Of a DNA stretch of 64,000 nucleotides, positions 27,192-30,289 are shown one piece after another (position 1 is the stretch's first letter; every line of letters begins with the position of its first letter). Made by a program: the position numbers and the translations under genes. The notes below the pieces were generated by a model. It ran no database searches. It was not told where the DNA came from and saw only the letters and a program-made list of their open reading frames with translations. The DNA comes from Candidatus Poribacteria bacterium (GTDB lineage Bacteria > Poribacteria > WGA-4E > PCPOR2b): positions 32,001 through 96,000 of the forward strand of contig OZ244042.1 of the NCBI GenBank assembly GCA_965215015.1. The letters are read 5' to 3'.

Positions 27192-27745
27192 TAGGAGCTC
27201 CACACTTGAGTTTGTAGTAACGCCATTCGACCCACGTCTTTAAGGGAGTCAGCATACAGAGTATGCCATCCCCCCCTTCCCCCGCTAAATACCCTGTGGG
27301 TTGTCCGTCAGTTCCTGGCTCATTGAGTCTACCCCCCTCAATCCCCCCGAAAGCAGGGGGAGACAGAACCACCCCCCTCAATCCCCCCGCAAGCAGGGGG
27401 AACGTATCGGTAGTTGGCACCTCTTTGCCCCTCCCCGCTTGCGGGGAGCTCTGTTCCGCCACGCTTACGGCCTCTTCCCCTCCCTGCTTGCGGGGAGGGG
27501 CTAGGGGTGGGGTTCTTAGGGGGACACCCCACCGGGTTGCGGCCCCGCTTGCGCCCTTCCCCCTGCTAAACACCCTGTAGGTTGTCCGTCAGTTCCTGGC
27601 TCATTGAGTCTACCCCCCTCAATCCCCCCGAAAGCAGGGCGAAGAGATACCGTATCGGTATTTGGCACTTCTTTTCCCATCACCCCTTGCAGCCTCTTCC
27701 CCTCCCTGCTCGCGGGGAGGGGCTAGGGGTGGGGTTCTTGCGGTT
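27192..27745. repeat. Composite repeat cluster: MITE-like left end, two direct repeats 281 bp apart and several GC palindromes
   Basis: TAGGAGCTCCACAC left end; GTTGTCCGTCAGTTCCTGGCTCATTGAGTCTACCCCCCTCAATCCCCCCGAAAGCAGGG at 27300 and 27581. Confidence 0.75.
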
Positions 27746-29166: not shown

Positions 29167-29226
29167 TTGACAACTCCTAAAATATGGGTTATCATGTACT
29201 GATTAAGAATTTAGGAGTGCCTAAAT
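29167..29226 (+). promoter_or_regulatory. Sigma70 promoter plus DtxR/MntR-type operator
   Basis: TTGACA(29167)-17 bp-TATCAT(29190). Perfect inverted repeat ATTTAGG-AGTG-CCTAAAT at 29209-29226 matches the TTAGG-N4-CCTAA core of SirR/MntR-type boxes. Confidence 0.75.
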
Positions 29227-29247
29227 CTAATTTTTGGATGGTCAAGA

Positions 29248-29611
29248 ATCAATAACCCCGTCCTAAAGGTCAGAGCTTGTACGAAGCGAATGCCACCCGC
29301 CGCTCCACAAGCTAAACCGTTGACTACACAGATGGTAACTTAGCTGTCTCTGCGTGGTAGCAGTCACCAGATGATACGGATGCCTCCTTATGGAGAATTA
29401 CTGATGTTCGTCCCAGTTGTAAACAAAAAATCAAAAACTGTTGATGCCTACCAAGCCCGCCCGTGCCCGGCGGTGGATTAAACAGGGCACAGTCAATCCC
29501 TTCTTTAACAAAGGTGTGTTCTGTGTTCTATTAAATATTGAGCCATCTGATAGCCAACTTGACGATAAGGAGCGCAGTTGCCTCCACACCATAGAAAGAT
29601 GGGGAACTGCG
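29248..29611 (+). mobile_element. Internally deleted IscB-type (IS200/IS605) element: omegaRNA/HEARO-like 5' part, PLMP/RRXRR N-terminal remnant and right-end hairpin
   Basis: 5' part ATCAATAACCCCGTCCTAAAGGTCAGAGCTTG...CAAGCT...GTTGACTA...GGATGCCTCC; peptide MFVPVVNK/QKLLMPTKPARARRWIKQG...FNKGVFCVLLNIEPS; 3' stem CGCAGTT(29573)...AACTGCG(29611). Confidence 0.7.
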
Positions 29612-29620
29612 AAGATCTTG

Positions 29621-30289
29621 ATGATAACCCATGCGATGGAAGATTATCTGAAGACAGTCTACTTGCTGCAAGAAGGTCGGGAGAAAGTCTCTACCTCTGC
29701 TATAGCCCAGCAAATGGATGTTTCTGCCGCATCTGTCACCGGTATGATCCGAAAGTTGGCAGCGATGGGATTCTTGAATTACGCCTCCTATCACGGCGTT
29801 GAATTGACAGAAGGTGGAAAAAAAATCGCTCAAGAAATTATTCGTCATCATCGGTTACTGGAACTTTATCTCGTGGAAATCATGGGATTTACTTGGGACA
29901 AAGTGCACGATGAGGCGGATAAACTGGAACATGTTATCTCCGAGGAGTTTGAGGAAAGGATGAGCGAGGCGTTGGGACATCCGACAACCGACCCGCACGG
30001 ACACGCTATCCCAGCCAAGGATGGTGCACTCCAAGAAGTTACTTATGAAACGCTGACAGAGGTGAATGTGGGCAGTTCTGCTACCGTTCAGCATGTCAAT
30101 GATAATAATCCCGAAATGCTGCGTTACCTCGATCAGCTGGGTTTGCTGCCGGGCACCGTTGTCCAAGTTATGGCGAAAGAACCATTTAATGGACCATTGC
30201 GTTTGAGGATTGACCAGACCGAACACTTTGTTGGTCTCGAAGTCGCAGGAAATGTGTTTGTAAGTCCTCAGACCACCTTATCTGCATGA
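29621..30289 (+). CDS. mntR: DtxR/MntR-family metal-dependent repressor with FeoA-like C-terminal domain
   Basis: EDYLKTVY, HTH (VSAASVTGMIRKL), RHHRLLELYL, EADKLEH, DPHGHAIP, C-terminal LRYL..LGL.PG. Confidence 0.9.
   Translation: MITHAMEDYLKTVYLLQEGREKVSTSAIAQQMDVSAASVTGMIRKLAAMGFLNYASYHGVELTEGGKKIAQEIIRHHRLLELYLVEIMGFTWDKVHDEADKLEHVISEEFEERMSEALGHPTTDPHGHAIPAKDGALQEVTYETLTEVNVGSSATVQHVNDNNPEMLRYLDQLGLLPGTVVQVMAKEPFNGPLRLRIDQTEHFVGLEVAGNVFVSPQTTLSA

Follow-up and report, generated by a model that had tools for sequence, protein, structure and literature searches.

The 373 bp in front of mntR at positions 29248 to 29620 (+ strand) of the window, a 64,000-nucleotide stretch of Candidatus Poribacteria DNA, are very probably what is left of an ISC1-type IsrB-omegaRNA transposon (IS200/IS605 superfamily), a dead copy with internal deletions that is carried passively. 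As a decayed representative of a transposon family already known, the insert is selfish DNA in ordinary decay rather than a novel device for regulation. Its value is that of a clean worked example of an IsrB/ISC1 element that parks on a start codon, decays, and leaves its target-side end as the surviving piece. An earlier note on this DNA had described a miniature IscB/omegaRNA element at this place, and all of the sequence features listed there were found where the note had placed them.

A 373-bp insertion separates mntR from its leader

The mntR gene is intact. It occupies positions 29621 to 30289 (+ strand) and encodes a 222-aa protein with the domain organization of the MntR/DtxR family, namely, an N-terminal HTH domain (PF01325, Fe_dep_repress, 1.3e-19), a metal-binding/dimerization domain (PF02742, Fe_dep_repr_C, 2.1e-29), and a C-terminal FeoA/SH3-like domain (PF04023, FeoA, 3.4e-19), all of which score above the Pfam cut-offs. 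An Mn/Zn-type ABC uptake operon lies downstream, as judged by eye from the list of open reading frames (ORFs). The sole promoter-like site between 28900 and 30400 is a sigma-70-like mntR promoter at 29167 to 29195 (+ strand; TTGACA, 17-nt spacer, TATCAT; 11 of 12 consensus positions), and the same interval contains no terminator-like site. The promoter is followed by a palindromic operator-like sequence read at 29209 to 29226 (ATTTAGG-N4-CCTAAAT, with no strand assigned), which from its resemblance we take to be a putative DtxR/MntR-type box, and the native mntR leader (29228 to 29247, + strand) lies immediately upstream of the insert. The promoter, the half-sites of the palindrome, and the leader are retained across the orthologous empty loci wherever these are covered. 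The position given in the earlier note, within the mntR leader and downstream of a promoter with a metal box, is thus borne out.

Positions 29248 to 29620 are an insertion between the mntR leader and the mntR ATG. When 61 related genomes were searched at the DNA level, the 23 to 32 bases preceding the insert were recovered from 12, all of the genus or family, and 10 of these loci were fetched. All 10 orthologous mntR loci examined in related species are empty at precisely the insert point; the left flank, ...GGTCAAGA, is joined directly to ATGATAACC, the start of mntR, and the encoded N terminus (MITHAMEDYL) is identical in all 10. Comparison of the filled with the empty sites (...GGTCAAGA|ATGATAACC) gives base-exact edges with a 2-nt AT ambiguity and places the insertion 5' of ATGA without target-site duplication, as in ISC1/IsrB elements. 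In addition, a high-depth contig of a relative from the public run X5 skips exactly 373 bases. The earlier note had taken absence from close relatives, together with an MntR start at 29621 only, as marks of a neutral, decaying insertion, and this is largely the situation encountered.

Public-run contigs from four studies were compared at the mntR locus. The relic, together with its A-run (29425 to 29430) and its right junction with mntR, is present in the contigs of X1 and in low-depth X5 contigs, both identical to the window, and in X6, a strain from another study that is 95 to 99% alike; the left junction is present in X1, X5, and X7, the X7 contigs reaching only to 29447, and is broken in X6 by another insertion at 29243/29244. 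An assembly artefact or chimeric join might be suspected, since the genome is metagenome-derived, its sponge-associated group is uncultured, and homopolymer errors can occur in long-read assemblies; however, because contigs from several runs carry the insert, such an artefact is effectively ruled out. In a separate metagenome scan with a 20-mer across the deletion junction of the relic, the single locus retrieved (L034) was a chance match of ~23 bases in an unrelated sediment contig, and the scan thus yielded no additional strain copy.

The loose end of the X6 contig at 29243/29244 matches the unit end (...GCGGGGAGGGGCTAGGGGTGGGGTTCTT; window 27464 to 27517 and 27686 to 27739) of a G/C-rich repeat, and from this match the sister strain seems to carry a copy of the repeat in the mntR leader, at a distance of 4 nt from the 5' edge of the IsrB relic. 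In the window, two tandem copies of the unit, ~281 nt apart, occupy positions 27270 to 27740 (families D1 to D4, 85 to 100% alike), where they give rise to numerous spurious ORFs on either strand. The repeat is probably a MITE.

The parent is an ISC1/IsrB element

The insert has a match with 74% nucleotide identity in a genome of the same genus (G005), and this match continues into a 335-aa ORF (element L004). The 335-aa protein has Pfam RRXRR (1.3e-35) as its only domain, an HNH domain being absent, and its best match among solved structures is the IsrB nickase 8DMB (E=6e-32, residues 3 to 294). The closest full-length relatives are 307 to 342 aa long, likewise with RRXRR as the sole domain and without the HNH domain of IscB proper (ISC2), and IscB chains match just the N-terminal 115 to 150 residues of the full-length relatives. 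Because the proteins contain RRXRR only, match 8DMB best, and resemble IscB over their N-terminal part only, the family is assigned to the HNH-less IsrB and not to IscB proper. The derivation from the IscB family that the earlier note had proposed therefore stands in general terms, except that RuvC and HNH were not both lost from an IscB parent; the parent is IsrB, in which HNH was never there.

About 33 full-length IsrB copies were collected from the 61 related genomes by tblastn and protein searches, and they were aligned first as a set of 14 and later as a set of 33. The aligned copies have a sharp 5' boundary at GTCAATAACCCC and a 3' end composed of AAGGAG, a hairpin, and AAGATTTCG, followed by ATGA, whereas the flanks outside the element ends are unrelated to each other. 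The window copy holds the 5' end, the omegaRNA, the isrB start, and the 3' end of these relatives in the same order, in agreement with the description of a miniature derivative of an IscB-family OMEGA element in the earlier note.

The relatives' termini, GTCA...CG followed by ATGA, are the same as those of ISC1-1_MA of Microcystis aeruginosa, which has the target N|ATGA and belongs to the ISC1 transposons, whose IscB1 is IsrB, as described by Kapitonov, Makarova and Koonin (2016, PMC4810608). Further features in common with ISC1-1_MA as described in that article are an integration at N|ATGA that produces no target duplication, imperfect hairpins in subterminal position, an HNH-less RuvC protein, and a non-autonomous organization without tnpA. 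Unlike ISC1-1_MA, the window copy has been reduced by deletion to 373 bp, its omegaRNA is broken, only 54 isrB codons remain, and its termini read ATCA... and ...TTG. The host differs as well, being a sponge-associated Poribacteria-type genome, which is in keeping with the sponge-metagenome labels of public runs that contain small shares of the stretch. The full-length relatives align over the above-mentioned residues of DtIsrB-omegaRNA, the OMEGA nickase of Desulfovirgula thermocuniculi (PDB 8DMB; Hirano et al. 2022, PMC9581776), and the two systems resemble each other in the target-adjacent motif (NTGA/TTGA as given for the D. thermocuniculi system, ATGA here) and in having the omegaRNA upstream of the ORF with the guide outside the element (PMC9581776). 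However, what survives in the window is only the PLMP-coding segment plus the omegaRNA 5' half, and the family omegaRNA is ~205 nt long, compared with 284 nt in the D. thermocuniculi system (PMC9581776).

The closest full-length relative, L004 (G005:C1:5906506-5909869), sits between ruvA and ruvB, and its ATGA is the ruvB start codon (MNQDKEMQTLL..., with RuvB_N from residue 26); its omegaRNA-side hairpin has a 4-nt deletion of its own. Elements L040 (G018) and L041 (G013), from two species, agree in their 25-nt left flank and in their right flank, ATGATACAAAAG, reflecting either inheritance of one insertion across species or two separate insertions into one site. L014 and L040 (G018:C1:759117-762417) are two full-length IsrB elements in tandem, ~1.3 kb apart on the same strand.

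Retained parts and defects of the relic

The relic begins with the 5' 140 nt of the omegaRNA scaffold, including a degraded end hairpin (29249 to 29387, + strand), which matches a profile of 14 full-length copies (nhmmer E=1.2e-23) and is backed by the covarying structure of the family. It is followed by the isrB ribosome-binding site, GGAG (29392 to 29395), and the start codon ATG 29404 (together 29392 to 29406, + strand); this pair, recognized as such in the earlier note, aligns with the isrB starts of the 14 relatives. The remnant of isrB codons 1 to 54 (29404 to 29566, + strand) encodes the PLMP domain and is frameshifted. Its translation is 85% identical to residues 8 to 54 of L004 IsrB by tblastn, and the peptide from 29441 matches Pfam RRXRR with E=3.5e-4 and 20.9 bits (24.6 bits in the whole-genome RRXRR search), a score under the 25-bit cut-off because only 41 of the 174 profile positions are left. 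The PLMP/RRXRR N terminus proposed in the earlier note is thereby recovered.

The target-side transposon end starts immediately 3' of an ~870-nt deletion junction with AAGGAG (29567 to 29572, + strand), a purine-rich Shine-Dalgarno-like motif that has AGGAG-like counterparts in the same columns of 19 aligned ends. The terminal stem at 29573 to 29611 (+ strand), noticed earlier, is real and is the subterminal hairpin of this end; 8 of the 11 predicted family pairs show compensatory changes among 19 copies, and the window copy retains the basal stem CGCAGT/ACTGCG with a degraded upper stem. The final bases of the element form a 9-nt terminal linker, AAGATCTTG (29612 to 29620, + strand), aligned with AAGATTTCG in the relatives. 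Next comes ATGA (29621 to 29624, + strand), the transposon target motif, which coincides with the start codon of mntR and the base after it; 31 of 33 copies examined have ATGA behind the end, in accordance with the N|ATGA target given in PMC4810608.

The defects of the window copy are extensive. Its isrB lacks ~870 nt, from codon 55 to just before AAGGAG, and carries one extra A in the run at 29425 to 29430 relative to all 14 aligned relatives, so that the frame is shifted after codon 8. An IsrB protein of ~335 to 350 aa has PLMP, split RuvC, and TAM-interacting domains, and of this only the frameshifted codons 1 to 54 remain. The omegaRNA lacks ~50 to 58 nt between GGATGCCTCC and the isrB ribosome-binding site (alignment columns ~143 to 200). 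The first base is A in place of the G found in 14 of 14 aligned relatives, and both end hairpins carry mismatches. The ends are homologous to those of the family and correctly ordered, with ATCA... and ...TTG at the termini compared with GTCA... and ...CG; they are recognizable by descent but probably not functional. Judged from its sequence, the insert is a relic by descent and not a working ISC1/IsrB member.

The omegaRNA scaffold

The family omegaRNA, measured from the element 5' end to the isrB start, forms 36 pairs in 8 helices in the alignment of 14 copies. Compensatory changes were found at 16 of the 36 pairs, 94% of the cells are paired versus 23 to 40% with the partners slid, and at most 2 of 500 shuffles reached any of the observed measures. 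The structure was judged by covariation instead of single-sequence folding, whose z-scores (-0.09 for 29227 to 29420 and 0.22 for 29540 to 29660) were uninformative either way. The window omegaRNA corresponds to columns 1 to ~142 of the 246-column family alignment and is an incomplete scaffold, in which helices 1, 5, 6, and 8 have lost their 3' strands, so that 4 of the 8 covarying helices are broken. An omegaRNA is accordingly kept in part, as the earlier note had it, but not intact.

The 5' part shares the 5' motif GUCAAUAACCCC, a hairpin, and GGGGCUUG...CAAG...UUGAC with the HEARO model RF02033. Unlike true HEARO matches at the gathering score of 83, however, the window reached 10.7 bits (E=4) in a 216-nt search and gave no match in a 2-kb search around it, and the full-length relatives scored 21 to 29.5 bits. 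HEARO scans were too weak to use, and the nhmmer profile of the 14 full-length family copies was used in their place; the likeness to omegaRNA noted earlier holds against this family profile, whereas the named HEARO model did not recover it.

A second relic of the same omegaRNA lies on the minus strand at G000:C1:3936560-3936685 (locus L002:1501-1626). It comprises only the first ~125 nt, is 89% identical to the window copy, and is flanked by phytanoyl-CoA-dioxygenase-like and Gfo/Idh/MocA-like genes.

The genome lacks partners for the relic

No other RRXRR, IsrB, or IscB was found by profile and protein searches in the 5.9-Mb genome, a single contig that is 98% complete; the possibility of a full-length iscB elsewhere, raised in the earlier note, is answered by the same searches. 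The Y1 transposase is represented in the genome by two fragments only, of 74 and 77 aa. Because neither an IsrB/IscB nor an intact Y1 transposase is encoded, the relic can neither move nor guide.

These searches bear on a live non-autonomous element, either a PATE-like mini-transposon mobilized in trans or a stand-alone omegaRNA guiding an IsrB/IscB encoded elsewhere; the earlier note had suggested a non-autonomous element or a trans-acting omegaRNA source. Both transposon ends and the target ATGA are indeed present, and stand-alone omegaRNAs are mentioned for IscB in PMC9581776. However, with no IsrB or IscB in the genome, a trans-acting omegaRNA would have no effector, and the omegaRNA lacks one half of four helices; as for mobility, there are only the two Y1 fragments, the first base is altered, both end hairpins are degraded, and the genome has only one other partial copy, the above-described 5' part with 89% identity. 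A live element is thus highly improbable, and the evidence favors a dead, internally deleted copy. The genome is a graveyard of IS605-superfamily elements. For TnpB/Cas12f, the zinc-ribbon domain (PF07282) has 19 matches in the genome, all in open frames of at most 109 aa and several with internal stops, which suggests that its TnpB elements are all degraded as well.

At nhmmer E<0.005, 8 target-side ends and 2 omegaRNA-side ends were found in the genome. Solo target-side ends (...CACTGCGAAGATTTTG|ATGA) occur without adjoining omegaRNA or isrB, including those at G000:C1:514821-514905(-), 1218824-1218884(-), 2988542-2988571(+), 1875464-1875493(+), and 1730114-1730143(+). Among 15 nhmmer end matches examined, ATGA is in place in 10, the window included, and in 6 of these 10 an ORF of 188 aa or more begins with its ATG, several of these ORFs having signal-peptide-like starts. 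The members of one subgroup of solo ends have another upstream sequence in common, CATGCCAGGCTGATTGAGCC..., and this subgroup may be part of a TnpB-type element whose end is the same.

Landing on start codons is a habit of the family

For 31 of the 33 related copies, which are not all independent of each other, the 3' end was traced together with its ATGA. In 22 of the 31, the ATG of ATGA opens an ORF that is at least 68 aa long or runs to the end of the fetched locus; the nine copies without such an ORF are L007, L009, L012, L014, L024, L040, L041 (at the same site as L040), L046, and L054. Pfam domains were detected in 12 of the 22 downstream ORFs (for instance, RuvB_N, PMSR, Aldo_ket_red, ThiS, and GFO_IDH_MocA), nearly all of them starting at about profile position 1 and within the first few dozen residues. 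On the other side, the left flanks of the copies often finish in a GGAG-type motif and a spacer, that is, in a host ribosome-binding site. The placement in front of mntR is the ordinary habit of the family, not a special arrangement.

The element lands on start codons because its 4-base target, ATGA, contains ATG. A reason that can be offered for the habit is that omegaRNA production needs incoming transcription; for IscB, Meers et al. (10.1101/2023.03.14.532601) describe that omegaRNA production requires transcription entering from outside and that insertions show a bias toward the sense orientation. In that account, GstIscB resembles the present family in taking its guide from flanking DNA, which needs host transcription into the element, in its sense-orientation bias relative to host genes, and in its target motif, TTCAT, the reverse complement of ATGAA (10.1101/2023.03.14.532601). 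In contrast, GstIscB has an HNH domain and is described there as active, whereas here nothing is active and there is no transposase. Since the guide sits outside the transposon boundary (10.1101/2023.03.14.532601), positions 29228 to 29247 are by analogy the stretch that an intact omegaRNA would carry as its guide. In the literature searched (main texts), no explicit statement was found that IscB/IsrB elements land on start codons or replace ribosome-binding sites; the term "start codon" occurs 0 times in the main texts of PMC4810608 and PMC13565253 and once, in another context, in 10.1101/2023.03.14.532601.

Expression of mntR behind the relic

The element appears to have inserted immediately 5' of ATGA, the mntR start codon and the next base, without target duplication and like its relatives, which would have placed it in sense orientation between the native leader with its ribosome-binding region and the mntR ATG. 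Decay would then have removed ~870 nt of isrB, all of it after the PLMP domain, and ~50 nt of the omegaRNA and added the 1-nt frameshift. The relic is now presumably cotranscribed passively from the Mn-box promoter as a 5' UTR of ~420 nt, with mntR probably still translated from its original ATG at 29621. Of the sampled words, the RNA runs X19 and X20 contained only 0.04. The gene appears to be still usable because it is intact, because its window-unique codons show an ordinary pattern (8 synonymous and 5 nonsynonymous, like other species), and because no terminator-like site lies between promoter and gene.

An ORF of 282 aa (29441 to 30289) runs unbroken from TTG 29441 or ATG 29444 into mntR, confirming that the remnant is in frame with the gene from 29441 on, whereas the frame of ATG 29404 is short, ends at 29481, and is put out of the mntR frame by the extra A in the run at 29425 to 29430, again as described before. 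An in-frame PLMP-MntR reading frame therefore exists, its protein product being hypothetical. The X6 strain carries the same deletion derivative, so the relic is not brand new and has persisted, which neutrality allows and does not predict. Five displayed substitutions of X6 fall in 29404 to 29620, all at third codon positions, the four in the isrB remnant being synonymous, and indels of -1 and +4 (sum, +3) leave the frame into mntR open; these data come from one contig, with up to 6 further differences outside the displayed set, and give a weak hint of constraint on the relic.

The relic could be imagined as kept for the control of mntR, as the earlier note had suggested, through a PLMP-MntR fusion (initiated at ATG 29444, or arising when the A6 run causes +1 slippage) or through an RNA leader or uORF. 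The open frame, its maintenance in X6 together with the synonymous substitutions, the occurrence of the relic in at least two diverged strains, and the identity of the remnant as a PLMP domain (residues 1 to 52 in DtIsrB as given in PMC9581776) speak for such a role. Against it, the insert is found in 0 of the 10 orthologous loci of related species and start-codon landing is general in the family; ATG 29444 has no Shine-Dalgarno motif, compared with the clear GGAG-type motifs at host genes of the group, and the strong ribosome-binding site serves the out-of-frame ATG 29404 with its stop at 29481. Moreover, an in-frame join of 18 codons would arise by chance about 1 time in 7 by our estimate, the strain sample is the one contig with its five displayed substitutions and up to six undisplayed ones, and the omegaRNA partner of the PLMP domain is itself incomplete. 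We consider co-option very unlikely. The same low probability attaches to a new translational control region made up of the PLMP stub in the mntR frame, the omegaRNA 5' half, and the Shine-Dalgarno/hairpin end, of which the boldest version would have a PLMP-MntR fusion bind the omegaRNA stub of its own leader. With the insert read as a passive relic, the mntR start belongs at 29621 in annotation, and a 282-aa fusion protein should not be called.

For a passive relic in this position, the initiation of mntR translation has to be considered. The native ribosome-binding region is now 373 nt off, and initiation at mntR would therefore most likely depend on the retained transposon end with its AAGGAG, hairpin, and 9-nt linker, where the hairpin may bring the Shine-Dalgarno motif beside the ATG. 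Hairpins that bring a distant Shine-Dalgarno motif next to the AUG occur in phage T4 genes. From the arrangement of these parts, we consider it nearly as likely as not that the retained end has taken over the role of ribosome-binding site for mntR. The AGGAG-like motif and a linker of 7 to 10 nt are kept across diverged subfamilies, and it may just as well be the Y1 transposase that demands the conserved motif and linker length. Minimum free energy folds of 32 transposon ends were varied, the stem reaching to within 1 nt of the ATG in 15 of 32 and the motif being found by the parser in 13 of 32; the alignment was relied on for the end geometry, as the automated parse of these folds gave inconsistent stems, and the modeled "split Shine-Dalgarno" geometry of the ends is unproven. 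A ribosome-binding role of the end, if true, would explain both the tolerance of insertions between ribosome-binding site and ATG at ruvB, msrA, and mntR and the survival of solo ends beyond the rest of the element.
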